64,000 bases of DNA from Dehalococcoidia bacterium (lineage in GTDB: Bacteria; Chloroflexota; Dehalococcoidia; Lucifugimonadales; GCA-2712585). The stretch lies in the NCBI GenBank assembly GCA_965207845.1, contig CBDBNU010000003.1:314492-378491 (forward strand), read 5' to 3'. A program made the translations under genes and the position numbers. Shown in pieces: positions 12,479 through 32,414 of the stretch; the first letter of the stretch is position 1; each line of letters starts with the position of its first letter. The notes under the pieces were generated by a model, which did not search any database, was not told where the DNA came from, and was given only the letters and a program-made list of their open reading frames with translations.

Positions 12479-12691
12479 TTAGGTGTAGACGGCGAAGATT
12501 ACGGCGTCGTTCTTGTTTTCTTCACTGAAGAAGAGGATGGCGCAGCGCCTGCCCGTTTGCGCATGAGAGGAGGAGATGTTGCGGGCGACGGGAACGGAGC
12601 TGATCCAGACGGAGAGGCTGCCCTCCAGCTGGATGGTGGCCTTGTAGGTTGAAGAGCTGAATGCCTTGATGACGCCTTTTTTGATTATCAT
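12479..12691 (-). CDS. small OB-fold-like phage spike/plug protein (gpV / gp5 N-terminal-like)
   Basis: 70 aa from the ATG at 12691. The pattern GVIKAF..STYKATIQLEGSLSVWISSVPVA...GRRCAILFFSEENKNDAVIFAVY resembles baseplate-spike OB domains. Last gene of the capsid module. Confidence 0.5.
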   Translation of the reverse strand: MIIKKGVIKAFSSSTYKATIQLEGSLSVWISSVPVARNISSSHAQTGRRCAILFFSEENKNDAVIFAVYT

Positions 12692-12762
12692 GTCATACCT
12701 TAGTTGGGTTGGGTTTTGGTTGGGAAGGGTGGGCGTCCGCACTGGATGCAGTGCGGAGGGGG

Positions 12763-14760
12763 TTAGACCCCCGACAGGGTGAGGGTGTGGGAATATCCCG
12801 GCGGGCCACCCGGGCCGCGTCTGAAGTCCATCTCAAGGCCCGTGACGCGACGGCGGGCCCCGTTCAGACCCGCCGCCGGGTCCGTGATGCTCACCACGTC
12901 GAGCAGCTCCAGCCCGCAATTGACGGGGGCCTCCAGAAGACCGTCCCGGGTGGACCTTCGCTCCCGGGACAGCAGGCTGTCGCTCCGCTGCCTGGCGGCG
13001 TCGGTCGTTTCCAGGTTGATGTCGTAGACTTGCAAGAGCCTGTCGGCCATTGCGGACACGGAGTTCCAGTCGAGGGATTCCTGTAGCGTGTCGAGGCCGT
13101 AGGTCTGGATGCGGTTGTACCGGGGCGCGCGGAACAGGTACCGCCCGCGGTTAACGGGGTGGTCGTCGCCGTAGGAGTAGGAAGCGGCATCGTCGGCGTC
13201 GAGCAGCTTGACGGCGGGGACGCCCCGGCGGAAGAAGAGGACCTCCGGCACGGTGGCCATGAGCCGCTTCACGGCGTCGGCGGCGGTGGTGTTGGGGTGG
13301 ATGGTGAAGGCGGGTCGCTGTCGCTGAAAGGTGTCGCCGGCGGTGAGGACATCCAGGCTCAACCCGGCCCTGGCGAGGATGTACTCCACCATGTCCTCGA
13401 CGGAAGTGTATCCCTTGATCCAGTTGTGCTGGTAGCGGGCCCGCCATCGCTCCAGCAGGGCCCAACCGTCTTCCAGGTATAGGGCAAGCAGGGCTTTTCC
13501 GGCTTCCGAGCGGCGTTCCAGCGATCGTACCCAGTAGGCGGGGCCGGGGGAATGCTCCACGCCGTCGGAGGTTACGTAGCCGGGGTCGAAACGCACCCGC
13601 GCGCCGGGCACCAGGGGCGAACCGCTCTCCAGGCCGGCGTTGTTGTAGCGACCGTGGTCGTTGCGGAGGAGCAGGGTGGCCCCACCGTCGGATACCCCTT
13701 CCACCAGCTTAGCCTCCAGCACATCGGCGGTGAGACTGCGGCTGGCGGGAGAGGTGGCACTCCAGACCTGGGTGGAGGTGGAGAGCCAGAGGGTTGTTGA
13801 GCTTCCCGCGATGGCGACGCCGGCGTATGGGTTGTCGTTGAAGGGGATGGGTTCGCGCCAGCGGGCGGTGCGGAAGGAGCTGTTGTCCGGGGCGAAGGTC
13901 CAGAAGGCGCGGCCGTAGGAATTGGGACCGGCGTAGGACTCCTTGAAGAAAAGGCGGAAGGTGTCGGCATTTGCCAGGTAGGGGTGAGAGAAGGACACTT
14001 CAGAGCCGGAGTCCGCCCGGGCGAGGTTGGTGATGCTGGTGAAGCGACCCCGTGCGTTCTCTATGCCGTCGCCGTAGACCGTGGTCCACACGCGGGAGGA
14101 GCCGGAGGAGGTGACGCCGCACACCACCACGTTCCAGTCGGTGCTGAAGGCGCAGGCAATGCCTTCTATCTTCCTGATGTAGGAGGACTGCGCCCAGGCG
14201 GCGGGGGTGGTCCACGTGCCGTCGATGCGACGCATGCCGTACAGGTTGTGGCTGCTGCTGGCGTAGAAGAGGCCGATCTTGCCGTCGGGGCTCACGGAGG
14301 CGGCCAGGTGGGAGACGCCGGAGACGGCGGGATAGAGGAGCCGCGCATCTCTGCTCCAGGTGACGCCGTCGTCGTTGCTCTCGCGGTAGCGCAGCTCGCG
14401 GCGGTTGCCGCTGTGAACGTAGACCATGAGGACGTAGGAGCCGTTGCCGCAGAGGGCGACTCCGGCGTCGGGATAGGCGTTGTTCAGGTATGTCCATTGG
14501 GTGAAGACGCTGCTTCCCGTGGCGTTGGCGACGCGCTGCACGTACAGCCTGGAGTTCGACCTTCGGACGCGGGCCCGGATGAGGGCGCCGCCGGAAGTCA
14601 GGTACAGGGCGTGCCGGGCGGGGGTCTCGTCCAGGTTCAGGTGTTGCGTGAACACGGGGTGGAAGACGTGGGGCAGCCGCCGGTCCACTGTGACGCCCAG
14701 GTAGGGCTGGCGGCGGGCGCTCTTCTGCGCTTCCAGCAGGGTTGGGGAGAGCCCGCGCAT
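12763..14760 (-). CDS. phage tail/hub-like protein with N-terminal BNR (Asp-box) beta-propeller-like domain
   Basis: The true start is the ATG at 14760, overlapping the upstream stop (TGATG). The track ORF extension to 15438 is a Pro/Arg-rich artefact overlapping gene 14760-15383. Asp-box SNDDGVTW is present. The C-terminal half resembles gpD/XkdQ-type tail hub proteins by pattern only. Confidence 0.75.
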   Translation of the reverse strand: MRGLSPTLLEAQKSARRQPYLGVTVDRRLPHVFHPVFTQHLNLDETPARHALYLTSGGALIRARVRRSNSRLYVQRVANATGSSVFTQWTYLNNAYPDAGVALCGNGSYVLMVYVHSGNRRELRYRESNDDGVTWSRDARLLYPAVSGVSHLAASVSPDGKIGLFYASSSHNLYGMRRIDGTWTTPAAWAQSSYIRKIEGIACAFSTDWNVVVCGVTSSGSSRVWTTVYGDGIENARGRFTSITNLARADSGSEVSFSHPYLANADTFRLFFKESYAGPNSYGRAFWTFAPDNSSFRTARWREPIPFNDNPYAGVAIAGSSTTLWLSTSTQVWSATSPASRSLTADVLEAKLVEGVSDGGATLLLRNDHGRYNNAGLESGSPLVPGARVRFDPGYVTSDGVEHSPGPAYWVRSLERRSEAGKALLALYLEDGWALLERWRARYQHNWIKGYTSVEDMVEYILARAGLSLDVLTAGDTFQRQRPAFTIHPNTTAADAVKRLMATVPEVLFFRRGVPAVKLLDADDAASYSYGDDHPVNRGRYLFRAPRYNRIQTYGLDTLQESLDWNSVSAMADRLLQVYDINLETTDAARQRSDSLLSRERRSTRDGLLEAPVNCGLELLDVVSITDPAAGLNGARRRVTGLEMDFRRGPGGPPGYSHTLTLSGV

Positions 14761-15383
14761 CAGGATCTCCCGCCGGCGGGCTGGTGGAGGGGACGATTGA
14801 GGCGGCGCACCCGCATGGAGGTACGGCGGCTGAGGTCCGACAGACCCTGATGGAAGCGGGCCAGATTCTCCTGCCCCCACTCCAGGAAGTGCCGCCAGGT
14901 GTGTGGGCCGCCCACGTTGATGCTGTTGATGGCGTGGCCGGACAGGTCCATGGCGGCGTAACCCGCGGCCCCGGTCAGGACCAGCTCCTCCAGGTGGGAC
15001 GCAATGGTGGAGGTTGTGGCGTTCAGGGTGTGAAGGCGGCCGTAGTGTACCTTCACCGCTTCGCCGGCATCGGGTCTCTCCCCGGTCAGCAGGGTGATGG
15101 TGGCTCCCCGAAGGAAGAAGTCCACGTAGGAAGGGGGGCTTTCGCCGACGGGGAACTCCACCGCATCGACCCTCACCAGTTCCGTCTGGGTAGCGAGGGA
15201 GAGGGTGATGCCGTCGGCGCCGGTCTGGATGGTGGTCACGTCGGGCCGGGGCTGGGCCGCGCTGAGTTCGCGCAGCGCCCGGCCCAGGTGACGGTCCAGC
15301 TGGGCGTCGGTCCACCGGTAGTCGGAGGAGTCTTCGTCGTGAAGGTCTATGCGGAGCCGGTTTCGCATTTCTGTGAGGGTCAT
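14760..15383 (-). CDS. phage head-tail connector/adaptor (gp6-like)
   Basis: The N-terminus LTEMRNRLRIDLHDEDSSD...LDRHLGRALRE fits the gp6-like connector signature. AAGGAG RBS. Lies directly after the capsid gene. Confidence 0.6.
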   Translation of the reverse strand: MTLTEMRNRLRIDLHDEDSSDYRWTDAQLDRHLGRALRELSAAQPRPDVTTIQTGADGITLSLATQTELVRVDAVEFPVGESPPSYVDFFLRGATITLLTGERPDAGEAVKVHYGRLHTLNATTSTIASHLEELVLTGAAGYAAMDLSGHAINSINVGGPHTWRHFLEWGQENLARFHQGLSDLSRRTSMRVRRLNRPLHQPAGGRS

Positions 15384-15420
15384 TTGGGAGTCTCCTTGGT
15401 GTTGTCGTTGGGTAGAGTAG

Positions 15421-15532
15421 GGGCGGTTCGCGAACCACCCTCGCGGATATGGGTTGGGGTTTGGTGGAGCGTCACCCCCATCCCTTCGGCAGGCTCAGGA
15501 CAGGCCTAACCTTCCCCCGTCGAGGGGGAAGG
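15421..15532. repeat. palindromic repeat cluster lying between capsid and connector genes
   Basis: gggcggttcgcgaaccaccc (15421-15440), tcacccccatcccttcggcaggctcaggacaggcc (15472-15506), and hairpin ccttccccc-gtcga-gggggaagg (15510-15532). Confidence 0.75.
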
Positions 15533-15548
15533 AATAAGAGGTGAGGGG

Positions 15549-16439
15549 TTAGGGACGGACGCCAGTGAGCTTGGCGAGCTTGAGGGCGTTGAAGACGGCG
15601 ATGGCGACGTACCACTTGACGCGGACGCGGGTGGCGTCCTTGGTCTCGAGGCTGCCGACGCGCTCCACCTGGAGGCCACCGGGGGAGGTGAGGCCTGCGA
15701 CGGCGCCTTCGCCCCACTGGAGGGCGTAGATAGTGGAGCAGTCGCTCTTGTTGCCGACGGTCCTGACGTCGCTCACGTAGTCGCTGACGCCGACGGGGAT
15801 GCCGTCGTAGTAGTCGGTCATCATGCCGAACTGGTCCCTGTCGGCGACGACGACGCCGCTGCCGGCGGCGCGGCCGAGGGCGGAGAGCTTGCGGCGGGAG
15901 CGGCGGCTCATGATGAGCATGTCGGGCTTGCCGCCGCGGACCTTGTCGATCATTTCGTCCAGCTTGTCGAGGGTCAGGGCGCCGCCGTTGTCGCCCATTG
16001 CGACGGTCTGGGTGTCGGCGGTCAGCTTGTCGATACCGTTGAAAGCCTTGGAGTCGGCGGCGCTGTCGCCGTCGATGAAGGTGGTGTCGAACTGCTGCTG
16101 GGTGGCCTTGGACTTGAGGGCGACGACTGTTGCCTCCAGGTCCTGAAGGTTGGAGCGGGTAGCCTTGACGAAGTTGTCCACGTCGGCGTCGCCGCCGAGG
16201 ATCTTCAGGTTGGCGGTGACCTGGGTGAAAGTGGGTGTGGACTCGTTCCAGGTGTCGCCGGGTTCGTAGAAGGAGACCGAGGGAAGGGCCTTTTCCTGGT
16301 TGTAGGTAAGGCCGTTGCCGACCACCTCGATGAAGGGGATGGACTGGAGGACGGGGCTGTCCTTGACGACGGTCTCGATGACGCCGGTTAGGAGCATGTC
16401 CTGGGAGAGTTTTGCGGATTCCGTTAGGGTTAGAGCCAT
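15549..16439 (-). CDS. phage major capsid protein (HK97-fold family, no delta domain)
   Basis: 296 aa. The overall pattern matches phage major capsid families (LTYNQE...ANLKILGGDADVDNF...DMLIMSRRSRRKL...IYALQWGEGAVAGL...VRVKWYVAIAV). GGAGG RBS 7 nt upstream. Confidence 0.85.
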   Translation of the reverse strand: MALTLTESAKLSQDMLLTGVIETVVKDSPVLQSIPFIEVVGNGLTYNQEKALPSVSFYEPGDTWNESTPTFTQVTANLKILGGDADVDNFVKATRSNLQDLEATVVALKSKATQQQFDTTFIDGDSAADSKAFNGIDKLTADTQTVAMGDNGGALTLDKLDEMIDKVRGGKPDMLIMSRRSRRKLSALGRAAGSGVVVADRDQFGMMTDYYDGIPVGVSDYVSDVRTVGNKSDCSTIYALQWGEGAVAGLTSPGGLQVERVGSLETKDATRVRVKWYVAIAVFNALKLAKLTGVRP

Positions 16440-16535
16440 AAGAGCACCTCCGATGAAGATTTGATGCAGAGATGCTAGAACATGGATGCTATGGCTGTAA
16501 AGGAAAAGTTGTCACTTTTTGGAGGGCGGCATGAT

Positions 16536-16566
16536 TTGCACAATACTTTGAAGTATCAGCTATAAT
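16536..16566 (+). promoter_or_regulatory. candidate sigma-70 promoter for darTG
   Basis: Consensus -10 TATAAT at 16561-16566, 30 nt upstream of the darT ATG. A -35-like TTGCAC lies at 16536-16541 with a long 19-nt spacer. The region is an AT-rich divergent intergenic region shared with the capsid gene. Confidence 0.4.
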
Positions 16567-16596
16567 GAACACATGGTTCGTTCGTATTGAATAATC

Positions 16597-17253
16597 ATGC
16601 TTGTTCCGTCAGATCCCAAGATATATCACATTGTCCATGTGGACCGACTAGCGTCAATTGTCGCCGACGGTCATTTGTGGGCAGATTCGGAAGTTCGAGA
16701 GCGTGGGATTGGGGGAACGAACATTGGAATGACCAACATCAAGCAGTACAGGCTACGTAGACGCATAAGGAGCCACGAAGACCTGAGAGTTGGTGACTGC
16801 GTACCATTCTACTTCTGCCCGCGCTCCGTTATGCTCTACGTCATCTATAGAAGAGATCATCCTGAGTTGCAGTATCGGGGAGGTCAAGGCCCTATCGTCC
16901 ACCTAGAAGCGAACATGCACGAAGCGATTGACTGGGCCGACTCCACAGATCGACGTTGGGCATTCACCTCCTCAAATGCTGGCTCAGGGTACTTCCGGGA
17001 CTACTCCGACTTACGGCATTTGAACGAGATTAACTGGGATGCAGTTGGAGCTGATAGATGGTCTGGAGTAGACGTCGACGTTTCCATTAAAGAGAGCAAG
17101 CAAGCGGAATTCCTGATGGAGAAGTCTTTCCCGTGGCACTTAGTTTCCACGATTGGCATCCGTTCACGCAGGATATATCCTAGCGTCCAGCAAGCTCTAA
17201 CCGGAGGTCGGCACAGGCCGAAAGTGGAAATCAAGCCGGGTTGGTATTATTGA
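16597..17253 (+). CDS. darT: DarT, ssDNA thymidine ADP-ribosyltransferase toxin (DUF4433)
   Basis: Strong resemblance to characterised DarT: IYHIVHVD, VPFYFCPRSVMLYVIY, the catalytic-Glu motif KQAEFLM, and the C-terminal PGWYY. Confidence 0.9.
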   Translation: MLVPSDPKIYHIVHVDRLASIVADGHLWADSEVRERGIGGTNIGMTNIKQYRLRRRIRSHEDLRVGDCVPFYFCPRSVMLYVIYRRDHPELQYRGGQGPIVHLEANMHEAIDWADSTDRRWAFTSSNAGSGYFRDYSDLRHLNEINWDAVGADRWSGVDVDVSIKESKQAEFLMEKSFPWHLVSTIGIRSRRIYPSVQQALTGGRHRPKVEIKPGWYY

Positions 17254-17267
17254 CCGGAGGTGGCGGC

Positions 17268-18329
17268 ATGATTGAGGAGAAGAAGGGTGATCTGTTTCAG
17301 GAAGACGTAGAAGCGCTCGTGAACAGCGTGAACTGTGTGGGGGTGATGGGACGGGGAATTGCACTTCAGTTCAAGAAGGCTTTTCCCGGGAATTTCAAGG
17401 CATACGCCCAGGCGTGTAAGCGAGGCGAGGTACAACCGGGCCGCATGTTTGTCTACGACTTGGGGCAGATGACAAATCCTCGCTACATCATCAATTTCCC
17501 AACCAAACGCCACTGGCGGGCCAAGAGCCGCATTGAAGATGTAGAGGCTGGCTTGGAGGCATTGGTTACCGAGATCAGGGAGCGTGATATTCGTTCCATT
17601 GCCATACCGCCGCTGGGCACGAATTTGGGTGGGCTGGGATGGGAGGACGTCAGGCCAAGGATCAAGGAGGCCCTAAGTGAAGTCGAGAACCTGGAGGTAA
17701 GACTTTTCATGCCGGGGGCCGGACCAGCAGACGATCGCCCTAACCCGTCAACCAAGTCGCCCAACATGTCACGGGGGCGTGCTGCCCTGATGTGCCTTAT
17801 GGACCTATACGAGAGGGCGCTGCTTGATCCTTTCGTTACCCTTTTGGAAATCCACAAGCTCATGTACTTCATGCAGGAAGCAGGCGAAAACCTGCGTCTG
17901 AAGTTTCAGAAGGGCTACTACGGGCCCTATGCTGAGAATTTGAGGCATGTGCTGAAGGTGATGGAGGGGCACTATATTTCAGGATACCTGGGGGTAGGCG
18001 ACGCCCCGGGAGATGAGTTGAAGCTAGTGCCCGGCGCTGTAAATGAGGCAAAGACCGTTCTGGAGAGGTTTCCCAGGACGAAGGAAAGGCTGGAGCGTGT
18101 TTCTGGGCTGGTGGAGGGCTTCGAGTCTTCCTTCGGGTTGGAGCTATTGGCCACGGTGCACTGGGTGTTTGCCGAAGACCCGTCCAGGAGCGACGAAGAG
18201 GTTGTCTTCTACACCCATCGTTGGAATCAGCGGAAGAAGCAGTTTTCGGAGCGTCAGATACGGCTGGCTCTCCAGACGTTGAGGGACAAGGGATGGATTA
18301 AATCGGCGGATTCGGTCACGCAAGTGTGA
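17268..18329 (+). CDS. darG: DarG, macrodomain antitoxin with C-terminal DarT-binding domain
   Basis: Macrodomain N-terminus (GDLFQEDVEALVNSVNCVGVMGRGIALQFKKAFP). The ATG at 17268 is preceded by GGAGG and lies just after the darT stop. Confidence 0.9.
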   Translation: MIEEKKGDLFQEDVEALVNSVNCVGVMGRGIALQFKKAFPGNFKAYAQACKRGEVQPGRMFVYDLGQMTNPRYIINFPTKRHWRAKSRIEDVEAGLEALVTEIRERDIRSIAIPPLGTNLGGLGWEDVRPRIKEALSEVENLEVRLFMPGAGPADDRPNPSTKSPNMSRGRAALMCLMDLYERALLDPFVTLLEIHKLMYFMQEAGENLRLKFQKGYYGPYAENLRHVLKVMEGHYISGYLGVGDAPGDELKLVPGAVNEAKTVLERFPRTKERLERVSGLVEGFESSFGLELLATVHWVFAEDPSRSDEEVVFYTHRWNQRKKQFSERQIRLALQTLRDKGWIKSADSVTQV

Positions 18330-18450
18330 GGGTTCCTTAGCCCTCTCCCTCCGCTTTACGGGTTTGTTGGTTCTGGCTATACTCGATTGGTGGAGATGGT
18401 GGGGTTGCAGCGCCTCGTGGGGGGTGCGCCTTCCATCCTGAAATTGTTGG

Positions 18451-20479: not shown

Positions 20480-20633
20480 CTGCAAACCTCCGGTTCTGGC
20501 GCATGTGGTCAGGATAAAATCTGGGTGGCCCAGCAGATTCCATCTTAACATCTTGGAGGGTGGCATTTACATTGTCATTGCGATTTTCGTCGCGCTCTGA
20601 TAAAAAGAGTTGACGCCAAGAGGGAGGAGTCAT

Positions 20634-21812
20634 TTGCGAGCAGCAGACAGGATGAACAACCTGGGTACGGAATCGGCATTCGAGGTGTTGGCTAAGGCCA
20701 AGGCCCTGGAGGCCAAGGGACACGACGTGGTGCACCTGGAGATAGGGGAGCCGGACTTCGACACGCCGGACCACATCGTGGACGCGGGCATTCAGGCGCT
20801 GCGGCGGGGGTACACTCACTACGGGCCTTCGGCGGGACTGCCGGAACTGCAGGAGGCCATCGCCGACAACGTGAACGCGACGCGCGGGCTGGATGTGGAA
20901 CCGGGGCAGGTGGTTGTGACGCCTGGCGGCAAGCCGATAATGTTCTTCACCATCATGGCGCTGGTGCAGCCGGGCGACGAGGTGCTGTATCCGAACCCGA
21001 GCTTCCCCATCTACGAGTCGATGATCAACTTCTGCGGGGCCGAGCCGGTGCCCGTGCGGCTGCTTCCCAACGAGGGAAACCGGCTGGACCTGGACGACCT
21101 GGAACGGAAGCTCTCCGACCGCACCAAGCTGGTGATTTTGAACTCGCCGCAGAATCCGACGGGGTCCGTTATGGGGCGGGAGGACGTGGAGCTGCTGGGC
21201 CGGCTGCTGGGTGAGCGGGACGACGTGACGATTCTCTCCGACGAGATCTATAAGGACATAATCTACAAGGGCGCGCACCACAGCATTGCGTCGCTGCCGG
21301 GGATGGGAGAGAGGACGGTCATCCTGGACGGCTTTTCAAAGTCCTACGCGATGACGGGCTGGCGGCTGGGGTACGGGGTGTTCCCCCACTGGCTGACGGA
21401 GCACGTGGTGAAGCTGGCGGCGAATAGCGTTTCCTGCGCCGCGAGCTTCACGCAAATGGCGGCGATACGCGCGCTGGAGGGACCGCAGGAGCCGGTGATG
21501 AATATGGTGGATGAATTTCGGAAGAGGCGCGATTTGATCGTCGAGGGGCTGAACAGCATCCCCGGCATCGAGTGTCCGGTGCCGGACGGGGCCTTCTACG
21601 TGTTCCCCAGCATTGCGGGGACGGGTTTCGAAAGCGGCGATTTTCAGGAGCGGGTGCTGAACGAGGCGGGGGTGGCGCTGCTGAATGGCGGCGCGTTCGG
21701 CGGGTACGGGGAGGGGTTTGTGCGCCTGTCCTACGCCAACTCTGCGGAGAACATCGCGAAGGCGTTGGAGCGGCTGGCGGGCTTTGTGAGGGAGAACGGC
21801 CGCAGGGGTTAG
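20634..21812 (+). CDS. class I/II pyridoxal-phosphate aminotransferase (aspartate aminotransferase-like)
   Basis: The motif SKSYAMTGWRLGY contains the PLP lysine. Start is uncertain: TTG 20634 after GGAGGAG, ATG 20652, or track start 20610. Confidence 0.9.
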   Translation: MRAADRMNNLGTESAFEVLAKAKALEAKGHDVVHLEIGEPDFDTPDHIVDAGIQALRRGYTHYGPSAGLPELQEAIADNVNATRGLDVEPGQVVVTPGGKPIMFFTIMALVQPGDEVLYPNPSFPIYESMINFCGAEPVPVRLLPNEGNRLDLDDLERKLSDRTKLVILNSPQNPTGSVMGREDVELLGRLLGERDDVTILSDEIYKDIIYKGAHHSIASLPGMGERTVILDGFSKSYAMTGWRLGYGVFPHWLTEHVVKLAANSVSCAASFTQMAAIRALEGPQEPVMNMVDEFRKRRDLIVEGLNSIPGIECPVPDGAFYVFPSIAGTGFESGDFQERVLNEAGVALLNGGAFGGYGEGFVRLSYANSAENIAKALERLAGFVRENGRRG

Positions 21813-22180
21813 GGTTTTTCGCGATTCTCGTCGGCTAAGACTTTCTCTAGCTGTGGGATGAGGGCGGGGATGTCGTTTTGGACGATATCCCAGATAATGT
21901 CGTCGTCAACGCCGGAATAGAAGTGGGTGACCCGGTTGCGAGTACCAATGATTTCGCCCCAAGCGATATGAGGATAAGACAGCCTGATGGAGTCTGGTAT
22001 TTTGGCCGCCGCCTCCCCTATCATTTCGATTGTCTTTAGGGTGGCTCTATAGACACGCAGATCGTTGACAAACTCGCTCTGGTCCAGCCCGCGGGTAAGG
22101 CACAAGACCTCTTTGGCGAACTGGAGCATGTCTCTCACATAGATTGTCCAGAGGAATCTTGTTTCGCTAGACTCAGACAT
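21809..22180 (-). CDS. hepT: HepT (DUF86/HEPN) toxin
   Basis: Intact RX4HXY motif (RNRVTHFY). Overlaps the upstream MNT-containing gene by 8 nt, as in canonical mntA-hepT operons. Confidence 0.85.
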   Translation of the reverse strand: MSESSETRFLWTIYVRDMLQFAKEVLCLTRGLDQSEFVNDLRVYRATLKTIEMIGEAAAKIPDSIRLSYPHIAWGEIIGTRNRVTHFYSGVDDDIIWDIVQNDIPALIPQLEKVLADENREKP

Positions 22181-23996: not shown

Positions 23997-24110
23997 TTGT
24001 TGCTCGATACGAGGATGGTTGAGGTCGTTCTTTATTATAGGGTGGCAGTGGTTGTGGGTATAGCAAGGGGTTGGATGCGTCGCTGCCTTAGGAGTGATGC
24101 GTGGGTGAGA

Positions 24111-24239
24111 GGGGCGGTTCGCGAACCGCCCCTACGGGTATGTTCAGGGGTAGGGGCTTCTCACCCCATCCAAACCTTCCCCCGTCGGAGGGGGAAGGCT
24201 TAAGAGGGGAGGGGACTGGATTCCGGCTTTCGCCGGAAT
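24111..24239. repeat. palindromic repeat cluster downstream of the scaffold gene
   Basis: Perfect 22-nt palindrome ggggcggttcgcgaaccgcccc (24111-24132), hairpin ccttccccc-gtcgga-gggggaagg (about 24176-24198), and hairpin attccggc-tttc-gccggaat (24220-24239). Confidence 0.75.
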
Positions 24240-24259
24240 GACGGATTTGCAGAGTTCTG

Positions 24260-24778
24260 CTAGGTGGAGAGGGCGGAGCGGATTTTTTCCATGGGGGTTA
24301 GGGCGGAGAAGTTGGCGGGGCCGCGGGTGGGAGAACCGGCGGGGAGTCGTTCCCTGGCCAGTTTTTCCTCGACCTCTCGGCGTACCTGGTGGACCAGGGC
24401 CCTGGCTTCGTCGAAGGAGCGGTCAATCTCCTCGACGGTCTCGCCGGCGACCATGGACTCCGGTGCTTCCGGCATGGATTCCAGCAGCATCGTCCGGTAG
24501 CGGGACACCGCCTCGGCCAGGGATTTCTGAGCCGAGGATAGTTTTTCCCCTTTCTCACGGAGCCGGACTTCGGATTGCTCAAGTTGCTCTTCCAACTCTG
24601 CTACTCGGCCTTCCAGCGGCGAGGGTTCTTCCGGGTTGTTGTTTTCATCCTCTGCAGGAGGGGTTTCTGCTTCCTCGATATCCTCGGTCGGGGGACTCGC
24701 TATTTCGTGGTTGTTCTCGGGCGATTCACTCTCTGTGGAGAGATTCTCTGCCTCGGTGTGAGAAATTTCCTTTTCCAT
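24260..24778 (-). CDS. phage scaffolding-like protein (acidic, coiled-coil)
   Basis: 172 aa with an acidic low-complexity N-terminus and a coiled-coil (RVAELEEQLEQSEVRLREKGEKL). Starts 13 nt after the portal stop. GAGGAGG RBS. Confidence 0.55.
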   Translation of the reverse strand: MEKEISHTEAENLSTESESPENNHEIASPPTEDIEEAETPPAEDENNNPEEPSPLEGRVAELEEQLEQSEVRLREKGEKLSSAQKSLAEAVSRYRTMLLESMPEAPESMVAGETVEEIDRSFDEARALVHQVRREVEEKLARERLPAGSPTRGPANFSALTPMEKIRSALST

Positions 24779-24791
24779 GATTCCTCCTCTT

Positions 24792-26117
24792 TTAGTTGTT
24801 CATGCTTTCTTCAGCAGACGGATCCGACTCGCGCCGGATGGTCTGCTGTTCCGAATCGGGGTCCGTGACGCCCAGGCGCTCCATGGCGCGGCGTCGGCTG
24901 TGGATGCCCGCCTCGACGAGGCTGCGTTCCTGCTGCACCAGCCTAGTGCGGTCCTGGGGAAGCAGCGGCCCCCAATCGACGCGGATCCAGAGGTCGCCGA
25001 AGTCGTGACCGGCGAACCGTTCCAGCATCATCAGGGCCATCTCGGCCCGACGGCGGTAGACCCAGGAGCGGATCAGCCGCTTGCGCTGAACACGTTGCAG
25101 CAGGGGGTGCATCTCCATCTCAAGGGCAACTCCGGAGAGACGCTGGGGGTTGTGTCCGAAGCTGATGCGGGGCGCTTCCGAAAGGTCGTGAAGGGCATCG
25201 TAGACCAGCTGTATATAGTCGGCGTGGAGCTTGGCGCCGCCGCCCTGGAGCAGGTCCAGCAGGTAGGCGCGGGCCTGGTCGGGAAGCTCCCAGACGGCCC
25301 CCGGCTCCACGGCGATGTCGCGGGCCTCTTCCACGCCCTCCAGCACGGCGATGGGGTTGCCGGAAAGTTCCAGTATGGTGGAAAGCTGGGACAGGGCGCG
25401 GTTCAGTTCCCGCGCCGGTTCCATGAGGATGGGAACGTCGGAGACGCCCCAGAAACGCTTGGGGTCCCGAAGGTTGGGGAATATGACGAAGGGGATGAAG
25501 CCGTAGGGGTTGGGGCGTTCATCGACGAGGGCGTCGCCGACCCATAGCTGAAATTCCGACCTGGTCCAGCCCTCGACCACGGTGGCCATGCCGTCTTGGT
25601 CGCCCGTCTTGACGTTGTAGAGGTTGTCGGCGTCCTCGGCTGAGATGCGGTAGCGGCTGGCGACGCGCCAGACCCGGGATGGATCGTCGCCGATCCACCA
25701 GGCGAAGATGCCCTGAACGTCGGGGGCGGTCACGCGGACGCGGCGCTCTTCCGGGTCCCAGATAACCTTGAAGCAGCCGTCGCCGAGCACGGCGGCGTCG
25801 AGCTCCGTGGCCAGGTCAAGCTCCTCCAGGCGGTTGTCCTGGTAGACGCGGCGCACGGCGATTTCGGCCTGGCGGGCGCGGGCCATGCCTTCGTCGGTGG
25901 CGTCCACCGGCTCCATGGCGAGAATGCCGCCGGAGGCCATGTAGGACGTGACCTTCTCCAGCAGCGCCCGCACGTAGTTGAAGGTGAGCCGCCGTTCGCC
26001 GCGACGCTGGCGGCCCTGCCACTGGCGTCCGGCGAAGAAGCTCATGTTCTCAGCGTAGGCTTGCAGCCGCCGGGAATCTCTTCGCGCCACCAGCTGGGGC
26101 AGATTTACTTCTTCCAT
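24792..26117 (-). CDS. phage portal protein (SPP1 gp6-like family)
   Basis: 441 aa. N-terminal FFAGRQW motif, with overall length and pattern typical of portals. GAGGAGG RBS 6-7 nt upstream of the ATG at 26117. Confidence 0.85.
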   Translation of the reverse strand: MEEVNLPQLVARRDSRRLQAYAENMSFFAGRQWQGRQRRGERRLTFNYVRALLEKVTSYMASGGILAMEPVDATDEGMARARQAEIAVRRVYQDNRLEELDLATELDAAVLGDGCFKVIWDPEERRVRVTAPDVQGIFAWWIGDDPSRVWRVASRYRISAEDADNLYNVKTGDQDGMATVVEGWTRSEFQLWVGDALVDERPNPYGFIPFVIFPNLRDPKRFWGVSDVPILMEPARELNRALSQLSTILELSGNPIAVLEGVEEARDIAVEPGAVWELPDQARAYLLDLLQGGGAKLHADYIQLVYDALHDLSEAPRISFGHNPQRLSGVALEMEMHPLLQRVQRKRLIRSWVYRRRAEMALMMLERFAGHDFGDLWIRVDWGPLLPQDRTRLVQQERSLVEAGIHSRRRAMERLGVTDPDSEQQTIRRESDPSAEESMNN

Positions 26118-26394
26118 AACCGTTCCTCCTCAAAATTCGATAGATAGTCCTGTGGCTGAGTCCGAACCGGCGGGCCACCTCCGCCACCGTCAGGTTCTCG
26201 CGCAGATGGGCCTGAATGATCAGTCCGTCCCGCTGACGCCGGCGTTGAGCCTGGGCGAAGCGGGGTTCGTCGTACTTGCACTGTGGGATAGGGCATTGCA
26301 GGCAGGACGGGGAGATTTCGCATCCCTCGTCCCGGTATTCCTGGCCGTCTATGGTTGCGACGTTGGGACTGGAATTGGTCCGACTTGCGAGCAT
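26050..26394 (-). CDS. Cys-rich helix-turn-helix DNA-binding protein (phage regulator or small-terminase-like)
   Basis: The ATG at 26394 follows AAGGAGG. Four-Cys cluster C-x5-C-x2-C-x4-C, then the HTH LTVAEVARRFGLSHRTIYRILRR. The 3' end overlaps the portal start by 68 nt. Confidence 0.6.
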   Translation of the reverse strand: MLASRTNSSPNVATIDGQEYRDEGCEISPSCLQCPIPQCKYDEPRFAQAQRRRQRDGLIIQAHLRENLTVAEVARRFGLSHRTIYRILRRNGYGRSKSAPAGGAKRFPAAASLR

Positions 26395-26609
26395 CTTGTG
26401 TGGCGCCCTCCTTGATAGGCGAATGTATTTTCGAATGATGGGCGGTACTATACAGCGGACGTTTGTTTCATTACAAGCGCTTCTTGTCACTTTGGAGAAT
26501 TTACGTGAGGCGGTTTGGGGAGGGGCGGAAGGTTTGGCAAGGGTCTACAGCGTGCCACTGGCAAGACACATTCGGCTGCGGCATAATAGGCGATGGAGGT
26601 TGTGCAGCA

Positions 26610-27389: not shown

Positions 27390-27432
27390 CGTCCCGGATC
27401 CAGGAAGACCACGGGAGAATCATCATCGGAAG

Positions 27433-28419: not shown

Positions 28420-28422
28420 GGA

Positions 28423-29241
28423 CTACCATCCGTCGGCAGGGTTGATTTCGCGGAGCATTACGGGCGTGCCGGGTCCGATGGCGCACCGGGAGGCCATCCC
28501 TTCGTTGACCTCGATGGCGTACTTGGCGGGTGCGGTGGAGGCGTAGATGGGCAGTGACCCTCCTTCAGCATCGTGCTCCGGCCGCATGGTCTGGACGTCT
28601 ATGACGTTCAGGTCTTCGTCGACGAAGAGGATGTCCAGGGGTATGAGGGTATTCCTCATCCAGAAGCTCAACTCTCGCTCGCGCTGGAAGACGAACAGCA
28701 TCCCGCGGTCCTCGCCCAGCGATTCCCTGCCCATTAGCCCTTGCGCCCGTTCCTCCGACGTGTCGGCGACTTCAAGGAAGAAGTCGCAGGAGGCGATGGT
28801 GGCTGCGGCTTGGATTTCGGGGCCGAGGGAGGGCGTAGGCGATGGGGTTGGGACGCGAGCGGCTGTCGGTGTCGGGGAGGGTGTGGGAGATGGGGTCGGT
28901 GTAGGTGAGGGTGGAGGCGTAGTGGTGATTGTGGGCGTGGGCGTCGGGGTGGTTACTGACGGGGATGGAGTGGATTCTGCTGCTGCTGCGGGGGTGGTTG
29001 TTGGGGAGGGAGCGACGGATGGTGTGGCGGTCGGCGTGGAGGTGATGCCGGGTGTGGCGGTTAGCGTTGGCGCGGGAGTGGGTGTAGCCGTAGTTGCTGT
29101 TTGCGTCGCCTCCCCGTCGTCGCCGGCGCAGGCGGCGAGAAGGAAGAGCGCGGCCAGACACGCGAGGGTGATTCGCGTCAGGGCAAAGGAGACGGCATGA
29201 ATGGACCCATTACCCAAACACCTCTTTGTGCCGGAGTACAC
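28423..29241 (-). CDS. DUF192-domain lipoprotein with Pro/Thr-rich linker
   Basis: Lipobox LFLLAAC, a roughly 110-aa PT linker, and the DUF192 core ([18 protein letters not shown]...[16 protein letters not shown]). Confidence 0.8.
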
Positions 29242-29300
29242 TTTTGTCTAATTCTTAGAACTTGACATATATTGTTCAACTATTGTAGCCTGTAATACAG

Positions 29301-29329
29301 ATGGAGGACATCAAAAAGATGTCCTCCAT
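29301..29329. repeat. perfect 12-bp inverted repeat (hairpin) immediately upstream of the tRNA
   Basis: atggaggacatc-aaaaa-gatgtcctccat. No flanking T-run on either strand, so this is not a canonical terminator. Confidence 0.7.
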
Positions 29330-29336
29330 CTCACGC

Positions 29337-29422
29337 GGTCGGGTGCCTGAGTGGCCGAAAGTGCCTGACTCCAAATCAGGATTGCGTAGCGCGCATCGTG
29401 GGTTCGAATCCCACCCCGACCG
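29337..29422 (+). tRNA. class II (long variable arm) tRNA with anticodon read as CCA; identity uncertain (Trp-like anticodon and G73 on a Ser/Leu/Tyr-type body)
   Basis: Hand fold: acceptor GGTCGGG/CCCGACC, anticodon arm CCTGA-CTCCAAA-TCAGG, 17-nt variable arm ATTGCGTAGCGCGCATC, T-arm GTGGG-TTCGAAT-CCCAC, G73, no CCA. The D-stem is weak (CCT/AGT, C10-U25 mismatch). Confidence 0.6.
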
Positions 29423-29676
29423 CAAAATAATGTCCTTGTCTATTCACCAGAGATTCTTATGTGCCTTATAATTTACACTGCGGTAGTCTAGTCTGTCAAC
29501 AACAACAAAAAGTTTGAGATAAATTTAATATTTTCTTTGATTAATTACAAAATTATGAACTAAATCGCCATGTAAGGACAACTTTAGCATCCAAATGAGC
29601 GACAATTACTCACATATCTTGAGCAAATGAGAGCCCTCATAAGAGTTTTTCTCTCGTAATTTAGTTTCGCCGCATA

Positions 29677-29985
29677 TTGACACAGGAAATGGCAATGTTT
29701 GAAGAAGATCACTGTCAAATTGAACAAATCCCCATGGCCCAGGCTCGAGGTATGTTAGGGCGCCTACCGGAAAAGCTTTCTAAGGAGAATCGGGCAGTTG
29801 CCTTGACTAAACGCGGTAAGCCTGTGTTGGTCGTTATACCTTGGGAACTGTATGAATCTATCGCTGAGACAATGGAGATTCTCGAAGATGCCGAGATGAT
29901 GGATGGCGTTCGTAAGGGCATCCAGGATATGCGGGAAGGCAACCTGATCTCCCACGATGAAGTGGTGGCGCGGCTGGGGGACTAG
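29677..29985 (+). CDS. Phd/YefM-family antitoxin, apparently orphan
   Basis: The core RAVALTKRGKPVLVVIPWELYESIAETMEILED is typical of Phd/YefM. The exact start is unclear (TTG 29677 or later ATGs). No toxin ORF follows. Confidence 0.7.
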   Translation: MTQEMAMFEEDHCQIEQIPMAQARGMLGRLPEKLSKENRAVALTKRGKPVLVVIPWELYESIAETMEILEDAEMMDGVRKGIQDMREGNLISHDEVVARLGD

Positions 29986-29992
29986 GCCGGGG

Positions 29993-31402
29993 TCAGGCCA
30001 GGGCGAGGGAGCGCTGGCGCATTCGGGGGCGGGCGCGGCCCCGGGCCACCCGCGGCAGGTACTTGCCCGCTTCCACCAGGAGCGCGAGGCTGTTCAGGTA
30101 GTCGTCGTGGCCGTCGGATTCTTCCACGTAGAAGTTCATCGTCTTATCCATTCGGTACTGGACCTGCGCCGACGTCACCTGCCGCCAGAACTCGGCCCAC
30201 TCCTGTGAGCCGTCCCGGGCGTACATCTTCAGCCGGCCTGAATTCACCGCCGACATCAGGTCGTAGCCCAGCCGCGACTTGCTCTGGGTGCTGTATCGCA
30301 GCGAAGTTACGGCGCTGGAGCCGAGGGCTTTCGACAACACGCTTGCCACGCCTTCGCCCATGCCGGTGGCGTCGACGGCCACGCGGCGACAGCGCCACAC
30401 GTTCTTGAGGATGTCCACCAGCCGCGGGTAGAGGGCGTGGTGGGGGACACCCTGCCACTCGTAGTGCTCCACCACACGGACGGCGGGGTCTCGATTGAAG
30501 TTATCTATTGCTGAGAAGTCCAGCTCGCCGATTGTCAGCACGGTGGAGTCGGGACGCTGCCCGGACGCGGTCAAGTCGCCAGCGCCGGTCAAGCCTCCGC
30601 CCACGTCCAGCCCGGCCACGTAGACGCCGTTCCTTGTCGGCGTGCGCAGGCGGGAGTGACTTCCCTGAAGCTGGCCGGTGTCGCCGGCGGTGAAGAGGCC
30701 CCCCTGGCCGGATACGGGCAGCAGCAGGTACTGGGTGCGGAAGAGGGGGTGGTTCTCCCCCATGCGCTGCCGCTCCGCCTCCACGTAGCTGCGGTAGGGC
30801 GGGCTGTGGGCCGCCACTTCTTCCCACGGCACTGAGAAGTGGCGCTTGACGCCGTCCTTCCGCTCCAGTTCCCGGTTGGACTCGGCGACCTCCTCCAGCA
30901 GGGAGCGGCCGTCCCAGGGGGTGCCGTAGAGGACGGTGGTGACGTTTGTGGAAGCGCCCATGGGACGGAACTCCTTGTGGTACTTGTCCGATTCGATGTC
31001 CTGGGCTTCGTCCACCTCCAGCAGGATGTGGGCCGTGTTGCCCACCACGTTGGCGTTTGGTTCGGCGCTGAGAAAGAGCTGACGGGCTTTGCCAAGTACC
31101 ACGGCGTTACCAGCTTCCGTGTACCAGTGACCGCGATATCCGGCATCGTCCAGCCGCTCCTTCAGCCGGTTCATGCTGATGAGGGCCTGGGGCAAGAAAG
31201 TGGGTGCGGCCTTGATCATGTTGCCGCCGTCTGCATAATTCATGGTCAGGAGAAGCGTCCCCAATTGGGCGGAAAGCTCGTTCTTTCCACCCTGTCGGGC
31301 AATTTCAACGGTGAAGGTCAGGCCTTTGCCGCGCGCCACGCTCTCCATCACGGCGCGGCCTATCTCGAGTTGGTAGGGACGAAAAGGATGTCTATTCTGC
31401 AT
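29993..31402 (-). CDS. terL: phage terminase large subunit
   Basis: ATPase Walker A-like ARQGGKNE and Walker B LLEVDEAQD, with a C-terminal nuclease-like half. AAGGAGG RBS. Confidence 0.9.
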   Translation of the reverse strand: MQNRHPFRPYQLEIGRAVMESVARGKGLTFTVEIARQGGKNELSAQLGTLLLTMNYADGGNMIKAAPTFLPQALISMNRLKERLDDAGYRGHWYTEAGNAVVLGKARQLFLSAEPNANVVGNTAHILLEVDEAQDIESDKYHKEFRPMGASTNVTTVLYGTPWDGRSLLEEVAESNRELERKDGVKRHFSVPWEEVAAHSPPYRSYVEAERQRMGENHPLFRTQYLLLPVSGQGGLFTAGDTGQLQGSHSRLRTPTRNGVYVAGLDVGGGLTGAGDLTASGQRPDSTVLTIGELDFSAIDNFNRDPAVRVVEHYEWQGVPHHALYPRLVDILKNVWRCRRVAVDATGMGEGVASVLSKALGSSAVTSLRYSTQSKSRLGYDLMSAVNSGRLKMYARDGSQEWAEFWRQVTSAQVQYRMDKTMNFYVEESDGHDDYLNSLALLVEAGKYLPRVARGRARPRMRQRSLALA

Positions 31403-31414
31403 GTCGGCCTCCTT

Positions 31415-31636
31415 CTAAGTGACCGCCCGCATTACCACGTCGGTAATGACGGCGGCAAGAATAATCAGCATCAGGGCGTTGACACGCCCCTTCACTTCCT
31501 CCAGCTGCTTCTCCAGAAGCTCCATGCGGAGTTCCAGCAGGGCTTCCGGGGCGAGATTTCGGAAGTCCGGCGGCGGACGTCGTCGCATCCTGCTCGAAAG
31601 GCTGCGAAGGGCTTTGCCGATGTTCTTGCGGCTCAC
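31415..31636 (-). CDS. small phage protein, basic N-terminus, coiled-coil and C-terminal TM helix
   Basis: The GTG at 31636 overlaps the upstream TGA (GTGA) and follows GGAGGG. The C-terminus ALMLIILAAVITDVVM is hydrophobic. The track ORF starts at 31654. Confidence 0.5.
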   Translation of the reverse strand: MSRKNIGKALRSLSSRMRRRPPPDFRNLAPEALLELRMELLEKQLEEVKGRVNALMLIILAAVITDVVMRAVT

Positions 31637-31953
31637 GGCCCGCCCTCCGTCCACAGCTCCCTGCCGATGCCGTTGATGACCCCGGCGATGCTGTCGGTCA
31701 GGTCGTCCGTGGACTTGGGTGAAAGCTTGTAGCGGGTGCTCACTGCCCTGGTCAGCATGTTCATAGCACTGAACATGAGGTCCATCCTTTCCGGGTTCCG
31801 CATAATCTGGTCTCGCAGTTTGATGCGAAGAATGGCAATCTCTTCGTCGACGCCCTCCATGTCCCTCGCCGCTTCCAGACGGGCGCGTTCGGCCTCCGAG
31901 AGAACGTCTGCATAGAAGTCCTCGGGGGTTATCCCGGCGGTCTTGCTACTCAT
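31633..31953 (-). CDS. small phage protein, candidate terminase small subunit
   Basis: 106 aa, helical, positioned just upstream of terL and translationally coupled on both sides. The function is assigned by position only. Confidence 0.45.
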   Translation of the reverse strand: MSSKTAGITPEDFYADVLSEAERARLEAARDMEGVDEEIAILRIKLRDQIMRNPERMDLMFSAMNMLTRAVSTRYKLSPKSTDDLTDSIAGVINGIGRELWTEGGP

Positions 31954-32092
31954 CCAGCCCGCCCTCCAGGACTTCCATCAGCTCTGTCAGGGCGTCTTCA
32001 GGCACGGCCAGCGAGGACCTGAGCATGCCCAGCAGCAGGCACAGGGACATCAACTCCCATTCTTCTTCGGCAACTATCCTATCGAGGGTCAT
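31946..32092 (-). CDS. 48-aa hypothetical protein (below the track threshold)
   Basis: The ATG at 32092 lies 4 nt after the upstream stop, with GGAG about 11 nt upstream. The stop overlaps the next ATG (GATGAGTAG). Translation: MTLDRIVAEEEWELMSLCLLLGMLRSSLAVPEDALTELMEVLEGGLDE. Confidence 0.35.
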   Translation of the reverse strand: MTLDRIVAEEEWELMSLCLLLGMLRSSLAVPEDALTELMEVLEGGLDE

Positions 32093-32096
32093 GGCG

Positions 32097-32414
32097 TTAT
32101 TTTCTCCTTTTCCAACGTCGCAGAATGAAACTCAGCACCAGTACGGACGCCAGCATGGGCAGCGCGCCGACCATGAAGCGGAGCCTGGGCGCGGACAGAA
32201 CATCCGCCTCCAGGCCTGCCAGCCAGGGCAGGAGGCCCAGGTAGAGGCTCTGCACGAGGAAGGCGAGGCTGATGACCAGGAGCGTGTACAGGGCCCACCG
32301 ACGATGCTGCCGGCCGTGGGTCGAGTATGTGAGGAGGTGCAGGGCATTGGCGCCGCTGGCAAAGGCGGTGACGCAGCTCTGGAGCACCAGGGCCATCTCC
32401 CATCCGAAGTTCAA
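32097..32414 (-). CDS. three-TM holin-like membrane protein
   Basis: The TTG at 32414 lies 6 nt after GGAGG; an alternative ATG is at 32396. Three hydrophobic segments and a basic C-terminus (RRWKRRK) give a class I holin-like topology. The track ORF extends to 32570. Confidence 0.5.
   Translation of the reverse strand: MNFGWEMALVLQSCVTAFASGANALHLLTYSTHGRQHRRWALYTLLVISLAFLVQSLYLGLLPWLAGLEADVLSAPRLRFMVGALPMLASVLVLSFILRRWKRRK

Follow-up and report, generated by a model that had tools for sequence, protein, structure and literature searches.

Gene transfer agents (GTAs) are known from a handful of lineages, and how frequently phages are domesticated is an open question. Related arrangements include PBSX of Bacillus, which is chromosomal, non-replicating and DNA-damage-induced and packages host DNA, and capsid-forming phage-inducible chromosomal islands (cf-PICI), which carry a minimal set of small terminase (TerS), large terminase (TerL), portal, scaffold, major capsid protein (MCP) and adaptor genes with no tail tube. 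The genetics of GTA particle production have been established for only three independently exapted groups, and the paper that treats these elements as viriforms makes no mention of Chloroflexi (PMC9662315). Here we analyse a 64,000-nucleotide stretch of a Dehalococcoidia genome (hereafter the window; contig CBDBNU010000003.1, positions 314,492 to 378,491), in which phage-derived genes at 12.4-32.5 kb form three minus-strand groups, or modules, with cellular and defence genes between them. Eleven colinear phage-derived genes, all intact, specify a DNA-packaging capsid and a minimal tail tip. Each module has its own promoter of one layout, a finding that is new here, and unrelated cellular and defence genes are inserted at different places in different lineages. 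On balance, we regard the three modules as one functional unit, a domesticated, GTA-like 'viriform' that would be vertically inherited and co-regulated. We found no literature tying Chloroflexi, Dehalococcoidia or SAR202 to GTAs or to capsid, portal or terminase genes in a search that covered subscription journals thinly, so that a prior description is possible.

A packaging, capsid and tail-tip gene set in three modules

A sequence-only reading of the window had described a complete phage head-morphogenesis set split in three. Its head and packaging genes stand, but the set is not confined to the head, as it ends in a tail tip of the baseplate-hub type. In the following, L-numbers denote loci of relatives, and 165 element loci plus the window region make up 166 sequences. 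The modules contain, in order of transcription (aa, amino acids; TM, transmembrane; HTH, helix-turn-helix; AF2, AlphaFold2):

Module 1, 32396-29993, minus strand:
32097..32396, minus strand: 99-aa membrane protein with three TM segments, holin-like, first gene of the module
31946..32092, minus strand: 48-aa protein, found by tblastn in 24 loci immediately 5′ of the TerS gene
31633..31953, minus strand: TerS family member, 106 aa; TerS PHROGs match 10 of 22 orthologues (best 2.6e-9)
31415..31636, minus strand: 73-aa tail-anchored membrane protein, sitting between TerS and TerL in ~30 loci
29993..31402, minus strand: TerL, 469 aa; Terminase_6C and TerL PHROGs
Module 2, 26394-24260, minus strand:
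26050..26394, minus strand: Zn-ribbon (four Cys) and HTH protein (Zn-HTH), 114 aa; HTH_23 (2.3e-7) and late-activator PHROG (1.8e-6)
24792..26117, minus strand: portal protein, 441 aa; SPP1_portal (1e-15) and phrog_64 (4e-25)
24260..24778, minus strand: putative scaffolding protein, 172 aa, acidic with a coiled coil; from position and composition
Module 3, 16439-12479, minus strand:
15549..16439, minus strand: MCP of the epsilon15 gp7 / SU10 type, 296 aa; phrog_212 (4e-70) and NCBIfam MCP_gp7_epsi_15 (1.3e-56, above cutoff)
14760..15383, minus strand: head-to-tail adaptor of the SU10 type, 207 aa; SU10_adaptor (2.5e-6, 28.5 bits against a Pfam cutoff of 27)
12763..14760, minus strand: beta-propeller / baseplate-hub fusion, 665 aa; AF2 model and Foldseek
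12479..12691, minus strand: 70-aa protein, probably all-beta, invariably 3′ of the hub gene

Matches in Pfam, PHROGs and NCBIfam bore out the earlier assignments of TerL, portal, MCP, connector (here the adaptor) and the Cys-rich HTH protein. Walker A (R36-Q-G-G-K40), the Walker B/catalytic pair D131-E132, the coupling motif G160-T161 and the nuclease residues D266, D344 and D433-D434 of TerL are invariant in 56 orthologues, and the window protein possesses what characterizes a Caudoviricetes large terminase (Walker A, Walker B with its glutamate, and RNase H-like acidic residues). The TerS candidate was upheld by the orthologue matches given above; the window copy by itself reached only E 0.051 against TerS PHROGs, and a PDB profile search with the TerS family gave no meaningful match. 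The gene that had been read as holin-like does encode a membrane protein at the head of module 1, but its match to holin phrog_217 is weak (E 0.0095). Orthologues of this 99-aa protein occur in L006, L007, L040, L036 and L024, and 107-aa membrane proteins of a similar kind follow the same promoter in L022, L035, L046, L047 and L049. The 73-aa protein consists of a basic N-terminus, a coiled coil and a C-terminal TM helix. Lying directly 5′ of the portal gene in ~130 loci, the Zn-HTH gene encodes a candidate regulator of the system, and the 172-aa protein is a putative scaffold judging from its composition and its position between portal and MCP in compact clusters. Pfam, PHROGs and NCBIfam hold no family for the hub, 48-aa, 73-aa and 70-aa proteins or for the scaffold. 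The ribosome-binding (Shine-Dalgarno) sites and start/stop overlaps are as previously described, including the adaptor stop codon that overlaps the start of the hub gene.

For the 665-aa protein, which had been proposed to be a BNR/hub fusion, AF2 and Foldseek agree on a propeller joined to a gp27-type hub. The AF2 model, built from 25 homologues (pLDDT, the predicted local distance difference test score, 90.6), places an N-terminal beta-propeller at approximately residues 20-340 and a hub fold of the T4 gp27 / Mu gp44 / VgrG / P2 gpD type in the C-terminal 340 residues. Foldseek retrieved hub structures from the PDB with E-values of 1e-16 to 1e-13 (best 1.4e-16) and TM-scores, normalised to target length, of up to 0.74, as well as BFVD models annotated 'tail protein' or 'protein D' (E 1e-18). 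The protein is accordingly modelled as a baseplate hub, and the fusion is a probable tail tip and receptor binder. Homologues of the hub were found in Dehalococcoidia only, at 30-82% identity plus one 100% identical record. The protein that follows, earlier read as an OB-fold spike, is 70 aa long, as are 36 of 37 distinct orthologues, the exception having 71 aa; single-sequence AF2 modelling gave a pLDDT of 45 and a PDB profile search a weak PAAR match (E 0.11), and we consider this protein a candidate spike tip or plug. Family searches detected no toxin or lytic domain in either the hub or the tip protein.

Purifying selection acts on the structural genes. We compared the window with L006, L007, L001 and L002, for which synonymous divergence (dS) is unsaturated, across the genes other than those for the 99-aa and 48-aa proteins. 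The ratio of nonsynonymous to synonymous divergence (dN/dS) was 0.09-0.38 for nine of the ten genes measured, the HTH regulator being the exception: portal 0.09-0.11, MCP 0.13-0.16, TerL 0.14-0.18, hub 0.18-0.25, scaffold 0.18-0.34, TerS 0.24-0.27, adaptor 0.24-0.38 and HTH 0.23-0.45, with neighbouring cellular genes at 0.05-0.20 and similar dS. In the more distant L005, MCP and portal are still 76% and 71% identical to their window counterparts, as compared to 57% for the adjacent GTPase, 66% for the aminotransferase and 47% for the FAD enzyme. The G+C content of third codon positions (GC3) of the MCP gene, 0.91, is the maximum of the window, and its dS of 0.19-0.25 is under half that of its neighbours (0.4-0.7), which suggests that MCP codon use is under strong selection, as expected of high expression. 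Pairwise identities across loci correlate for portal and MCP (r = 0.78), portal and hub (0.95), MCP and hub (0.86) and portal and TerL (0.76), indicating that components diverge together though physically apart; the correlation was lower for TerL and MCP (r = 0.40, 21 loci).

The gene set is class-wide, and its modules together with their interruptions recur in close relatives. Scanning one genome per GTDB species, we found portal relatives in at least 504 genomes (57-91% identical), the best 80 of which are labelled Dehalococcoidia, Dehalococcoidales or Chloroflexota, bar one metagenome-assembled genome (MAG) labelled Deltaproteobacteria. More than 5600 MCP homologues exist; among the 120 listed, 119 span the full query and are 294-298 aa long (109 of them 296 aa) and identities are 70-94%, while the portal has 3857 homologues, those listed being at least 59% identical. 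Named MCP and portal sources are Chloroflexota, Dehalococcoidia or SAR202, with one portal described only as 'subsurface metagenome', and many of these homologues lie on Mb-size contigs. The order TerS-(73 aa)-TerL, HTH-portal and scaffold-MCP-adaptor-hub-70 aa is constant in the 165 loci and in 80 IMG/VR contigs.

Like endogenised GTAs, which often occupy multiple loci, the set sits in the window as three modules amid cellular genes, and it is scattered in most genomes, with a single ~10-kb compact cluster in some (L025, L030). In 33 genomes the portal gene has a complete 10 kb to either side; TerL and MCP were both within reach in 9 of these, only TerL in 19, only MCP in 3 and neither in 2. 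In L004, a 2.2-Mb circular contig, scaffold-MCP-adaptor-hub-70 aa stand alone amid unrelated genes. Clusters of Dehalococcoidales carry extra genes between MCP, adaptor and hub (Laminin_G_3; 154, 168, 75, 348 and 109 aa; small TM proteins), which have no homologue anywhere in the window. Close relatives share the same chromosomal neighbours, dS resembles that of flanking genes, and component divergence is correlated; these indications favour a mostly vertical descent in which element and host diversified together.

Each module has its own promoter of one layout

In the window, AGTGAC is followed after 9 nt by a −35-like hexamer (TTGACG, TTGTAA or TTTACA) and, 18 nt further on, by the −10:

32458..32516, minus strand: promoter P1 of module 1, CTCCAA-N9-AGTGAC-N9-TTGACG, then the box TGCACGGTTGTTCT
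26447..26497, minus strand: promoter P2 of module 2, CTCCAA-AGTGAC-N9-TTGTAA-N18-TATAGT, with a degenerate box
16472..16524, minus strand: promoter P3 of module 3, CTCCAAAA-AGTGAC-N9-TTTACA, then the box AGCATCCATGTTCT

The P1 box overlaps the −10 TATGCT and has two mismatches to the inverted repeat AGAAC-N4-GTTCT, its orthologous site being kept in L006; the P3 box, also with two mismatches, overlaps the −10 TAGCAT and is kept in L001, L002 and L007. The P2 orthologue in L006 reads AGTGAC-N9-TTGCAA...GGAACATACGTCCGTTCTATAGT. Searching the 64 kb with AGTGAC-N9-TTKWM returned three matches, one 5′ of each module and all on the modules' strand, with 0.09 expected for this post hoc pattern. CTCCAA-N(0-10)-AGTGAC picks the same three window sites, and a blind consensus promoter scan also recovered P2 and P3.

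The relatives carry the same arrangement, for which 75 distinct sites gave the consensus aaa-(G/A)(T/C)GACA-N9-TTGACA-N4/5-AGAACATATGT(G/T)CT-AnTnT. With a composite promoter pattern, 107 of the 166 sequences yielded a total of 118 sites on the strand of the modules; 112 were assigned to module starts, and the remaining 6 precede module genes on inspection. Separated MCP modules own a promoter copy, and many compact clusters have none at that position. The opposite strand holds a single composite site, in L051. There, the promoter lies on the minus strand, a few kb away from the portal gene, and precedes an open reading frame (ORF; promoter at 16112 and ORF at 16176-16421 in reverse-complement numbering). 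The 81-aa product has a TerS-like GNxNAxKxG motif, and the site may represent a second, partial copy of the packaging module.

Across 1.9 Mb of loci, the box GAAC-N4-GT(T/G)C occurs at 0.63 per kb 5′ of modules and at 0.026 per kb elsewhere, a 24-fold difference, and it is present in 28 of 56 module-1 zones and 60 of 141 module-2 zones. Most module boxes take the form GAAC-N4-GTGC, which also makes a TGn extended −10. In Firmicutes and Actinobacteria, GAAC-N4-GTTC serves as the operator of LexA, and variants of it have been reported from Chloroflexi (PMC4951493, which refers to work on Dehalococcoides ethenogenes by Fernandez de Henestrosa et al. 2002). A perfect GAAC-N4-GTTC core lies within 160 nt 5′ of 72 of 76 metagenomic lexA genes (55-64% identical to the lexA of L014), often between the −35 and the −10, and in none of 76 coding controls. 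Since the same core precedes these related lexA genes, we propose that the modules are under SOS control, with the inverted repeat acting as a LexA operator through which they would be repressed by LexA and induced by DNA damage. The lexA gene of L014 (OZ242025.1, 12157-13284) carries a AGAACATTAGTTCA box beside its ribosome-binding site and lies directly 3′ of the scaffold-like gene of the portal module, an adjacency seen once in 165 loci that could be coincidence. The recA promoter of L082 has no box; Dehalococcoides LexA reportedly does not bind the recA promoter, which may fit this absence and gives no support to the proposal.

The upstream element comes in variants (GTGACA, GCGACA, GTGCCA) that are usually common to the modules of one genome and differ between lineages. 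This is the pattern expected for the site of a co-evolving activator, which makes the Zn-HTH protein the obvious candidate, and we infer that the GTGACA element is specific to the system and bound by this protein. The presence of the same promoter on every fragment would explain how break-up of the cluster is tolerated: it could be split by insertions and yet stay functional because each fragment carries a promoter copy.

Junctions, flanks and neighbouring genes

Family searches identified the interrupting genes just as the sequence-only reading had listed them. Modules 1 and 2 are separated by Phd/YefM, a tRNA, DUF192, an MMR_HSR1+TGS GTPase and enoyl-CoA hydratase (ECH); modules 2 and 3 by an LLM (luciferase-like) oxidoreductase, HepT/MNT, an aminotransferase, a DAO-type oxidoreductase, a PALP enzyme, DarT and DarG. 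Concerns over misassembly were met by three independent assemblies labelled Dehalococcoidia, L001 (GCA_964418665), L006 (OX638324.1, a 2.47-Mb chromosome) and L007 (OZ250180.1), which reproduce the gene order, the interruptions and the junctions; synteny of the left flank extends to L002 and L003. Module G+C is 0.60-0.68, like that of the window and hence host-like as had been stated, with dips at the 16-18 kb and 29-30 kb junctions.

The Pfam survey of the window and both flanks returned no integrase, replication or tail-tube genes, in agreement with the earlier reading, and none for sheath, tape measure or lysin in the window. Both flanks are cellular (RadA, NUDIX, GNAT, SDRs, MaoC dehydratases, F420 biosynthesis, RuvABC, YebC, ABC exporters) and devoid of tail genes, and no direct repeats resembling attachment (att) sites bracket the region. 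The marks of a temperate prophage, namely a contiguous integrase, an att duplication and repressor or replication genes, are thus missing from the window. A tRNA-Leu gene next to module 3 was considered as an ancestral attachment site and rejected; beyond the window, the adjacency was seen only in L001 and L002.

Gene content at the junctions turns over among close relatives. The DUF192-tRNA-AT-rich-Phd stretch (28423-29985) is missing from L006 and L007. DarTG lies just 5′ of the MCP promoter in the window and L006 only, the slot being empty in L001 and occupied in L002 and L003 by a 935-946-aa N6_Mtase-like gene (L002 7147-9954), and HepT/MNT pairs number one to three. The module junctions at 16597-18329 and 21809-22871 are hot spots of defence and toxin-antitoxin (TA) genes. 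An orphan Phd/YefM antitoxin gene (29695-29985, plus strand) belongs to the same insertion as the DUF192 lipoprotein, the AT-rich tract and an odd tRNA at 29337-29423 (plus strand), which ARAGORN calls tRNA-Trp (CCA), yet which is 87 nt long with a class-II long variable arm (Leu/Ser/Tyr); it scores 56 bits as an Rfam tRNA and did not arise by recent duplication of tRNA-Leu(CAA) (12330-12415).

A dispersed intergenic repeat of up to ~130 nt occurs at 10633-10705, 15419-15548, 24110-24214 and 35771-35812, one copy filling the gap between MCP and adaptor genes and another lying 3′ of the scaffold gene. It carries two G+C-rich hairpins, CCTTCCCCC...GGGGGAAGG and GGGGCGGTTCGCGAACCGCCCC, and looks like a repetitive extragenic palindromic (REP)-type element or a transcript-end structure; the stability of the hairpin 3′ of the MCP gene, which is part of this REP-like repeat, is not significant (z = -1.66). 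Divergent from module 1, an 877-aa secreted protein with DUF4352 and a trypsin-like peptidase is encoded at 32472-35105 (plus strand), with a Pro/Thr-rich 12-nt tandem repeat at 33291-33440; its gene is not beside the module in L006 and L007. Plus-strand GC skew is positive (~+0.1 to +0.3) over positions 1-30000 regardless of gene orientation, and about zero beyond.

Proposed role, alternatives and known systems

Were the modules to act as one domesticated unit, DNA damage would de-repress all of them together via LexA, and a system-specific activator, most simply the Zn-HTH protein, would bind the upstream element. Scaffold and epsilon15-type MCP would assemble on the portal, TerS and TerL would fill the capsid through it, and the adaptor would close the head. 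The trimeric hub with its propeller, possibly for receptor binding, and the small tip protein would provide a minimal tail, and the module-1 membrane proteins would release the particles. Their cargo would probably be host DNA, given that the set cannot replicate or integrate, that the modules are usually too far apart to be carried together, that the packaging enzymes are the most constrained and that there is no recognisable self-packaging unit. The parts of this proposal differ in strength. A domesticated system maintained by selection is very probable, and the making of DNA-filled particles quite likely; delivery of DNA to other cells, as by a true GTA, we advance with more doubt than conviction. 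Equally tentative is the most specific version, namely an ancient, independently domesticated GTA of the Dehalococcoidia, with a tubeless, DNA-filled epsilon15-type capsid encoded by scattered modules under one LexA-repressed, Zn-HTH-activated promoter.

Several points weigh against this proposal. That particles form, contain DNA and transfer it is deduced from the genes. No tail tube, tape measure, stopper/terminator, maturation protease or lytic enzyme was found, protease, tube and tape measure being absent by family searches from the window and from compact clusters; the lacking particle parts could be encoded elsewhere in the genome, and we know of no precedent for a hub docking straight onto an adaptor. 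The epsilon15 capsid is T=7 and holds ~40 kb, and a capsid of that size could accommodate the 20-kb region of the window, which means that the element may not share the GTA hallmark of being unable to package itself. As for regulation, the window promoter patterns were written after the sites had been seen, which inflates their statistics; LexA boxes are no commoner in the window than chance predicts (11 matches, 18 expected); and its module boxes are degenerate, P1 and P3 having two mismatches each and P2 being unrecognisable. SOS control may therefore be weaker in the sub-lineage of the window, where upstream element, −35 and −10 are kept. Finally, the taxonomic breadth derives from MAGs and a pattern-seeded scan.

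Of the other explanations, a domesticated particle with a role other than gene transfer (PBSX-like SOS-induced killing, altruistic lysis with DNA release, or phage decoy and defence) is unlikely. In its favour, the conservation and promoter evidence fits it equally well, bacteriocins and defective-prophage killers are typically controlled in an SOS-like manner, the module junctions are rich in defence genes, and a hub-plus-tip tail without tube or tape measure does not assure DNA delivery. What argues against it is that TerS, TerL with all its catalytic residues, and portal are among the most constrained components, so that packaging appears to be selected, which a pure killer would not need, and that hub and tip protein show no toxin or lytic domain. 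A mobile, helper-dependent satellite resembling cf-PICI, making its own capsids and borrowing tails and replication, would share the head, packaging and adaptor gene content of capsid-forming islands, and virus-detection pipelines have filed 373 fragments as viral. We nevertheless judge it improbable. Neither the window nor the inspected loci contain integrase, replication or excision genes, and over 10 kb separates the modules in the majority of genomes. In close relatives, the chromosomal setting and the synonymous divergence agree with those of the flanking genes. Proximity to a tRNA gene is not a constant feature, att-like repeats are absent, and the set supplies a hub and a tip protein of its own.

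An ordinary prophage, either decaying, with ORFs that are remnants en route to loss, or rich in morons, is suggested by phage structural homologues in canonical order and by TA and defence genes interspersed in moron-like fashion. It is nonetheless very improbable in view of intact ORFs with dN/dS of 0.09-0.38 in at least 504 species, near-constant lengths (MCP 294-298 aa in 119 of 120 listed, tip protein 70-71 aa), host-like composition with the highest GC3 of the window in the MCP gene, inserted genes that are of housekeeping type and syntenic in relatives, and a promoter copied at every module. That the split layout is an assembly chimera of phage and chromosomal contigs is scarcely credible: the G+C dips at 16-18 and 29-30 kb could raise suspicion, but we found nothing in its favour, and order and junctions recur in L001, L006 and L007, with the left flank syntenic in L002 and L003. 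Every check run thus sided with the initial impression that this is no recent prophage and recalls dispersed, domesticated particle systems.

If the domesticated-unit reading is true, a class-wide, constrained Dehalococcoidia system would add an independent GTA case in a phylum with none, that is, the first of the Chloroflexota and a new minimal particle architecture. The hosts are numerous in the dark ocean, aquifers and sediments and mostly uncultured; the class includes the abundant deep-ocean SAR202 as well as organohalide respirers. Particles that move DNA would constitute a major unrecognised route of gene flow in these habitats and would contribute bacterial DNA to viral-size fractions. 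Virus-mining pipelines count hundreds of these loci as viruses, inflating the number of 'Dehalococcoidia phages'. A hub-type tail tip without tube or tape measure also poses a structural puzzle, to which the lack of peptidoglycan described for Dehalococcoides may be relevant: were peptidoglycan missing here too, it would make sense that the element has neither a lysin nor a long tail. The proposal predicts that the modules are expressed together and respond to SOS induction, that LexA and the HTH protein each have binding sites, and that the particles are about as large as an epsilon15 head.

Cultured phages are distant from the element, with MCPs at most 42% and portals at most 25.5% identical. 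Related head genes occur in Salmonella phage epsilon15, Escherichia phage SU10, Streptomyces phage Rowa and Pseudomonas phage Ab18, with MCP identities to phage relatives of 40-42%. Rowa, a siphovirus with a related MCP, has the same TerS-TerL-portal-scaffold-MCP-adaptor order; beyond the adaptor, however, it encodes protease, head closure, neck, terminator, tube, chaperones, tape measure and lysin, none of which is present here. Of 373 matches in IMG/VR, the best 80 proved to be pieces of this element, 4-27 kb in length, in which tail and replication genes are lacking. PBSX has the properties that we infer for the present system, but differs in its contiguous cluster, full contractile tail, occurrence in few species and killing particle. 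The cf-PICI share the minimal gene set and the missing tail tube but are mobile and helper-dependent, with integrase, replication genes and att sites, whereas the set described here is dispersed and has its own hub; satellite traits (integrase, replication/primase, no tail tip of its own) do not apply to it. As to the LexA regulon, lexA promoters have the same core in the same position between −35 and −10, the additional GTGACA element being found here only.

The GTAs proper come closer. As in BhGTA / VSH-1 of Brachyspira (Brachygtaviriformidae; PMC9662315), the particle genes are interspersed with other genes or set apart by them, a single conserved terL stands away from the main cluster and cultured phages are only weakly similar; co-diversification with the host, a trait of BhGTA, is probable here. 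BhGTA, which possesses a tail and an endolysin, is nevertheless confined to a single genus, whereas the present set is class-wide, with clear phage-head homology and no lysin found. RcGTA-type elements (Rhodogtaviriformidae; Caulobacter GTA) likewise consist of chromosomal, phage-derived head and packaging genes that are class-wide and under purifying selection, occupy several loci, respond to host regulators and lack replication and integration genes (PMC9662315); their vertical inheritance is probably shared by the present set. They differ in their HK97-type MCP with protease, tube, tape measure and distal tail protein, as opposed to the epsilon15 gp7/SU10 MCP found here, which points to an independent origin; the predicted tail comprises only adaptor, hub fusion and 70-aa protein, the hosts are Chloroflexota, and a putative LexA-type operator accompanies the modules. 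The element therefore does not belong to the RcGTA-like cluster, and the comparison supports an independent, structurally unusual variant of the GTA kind.

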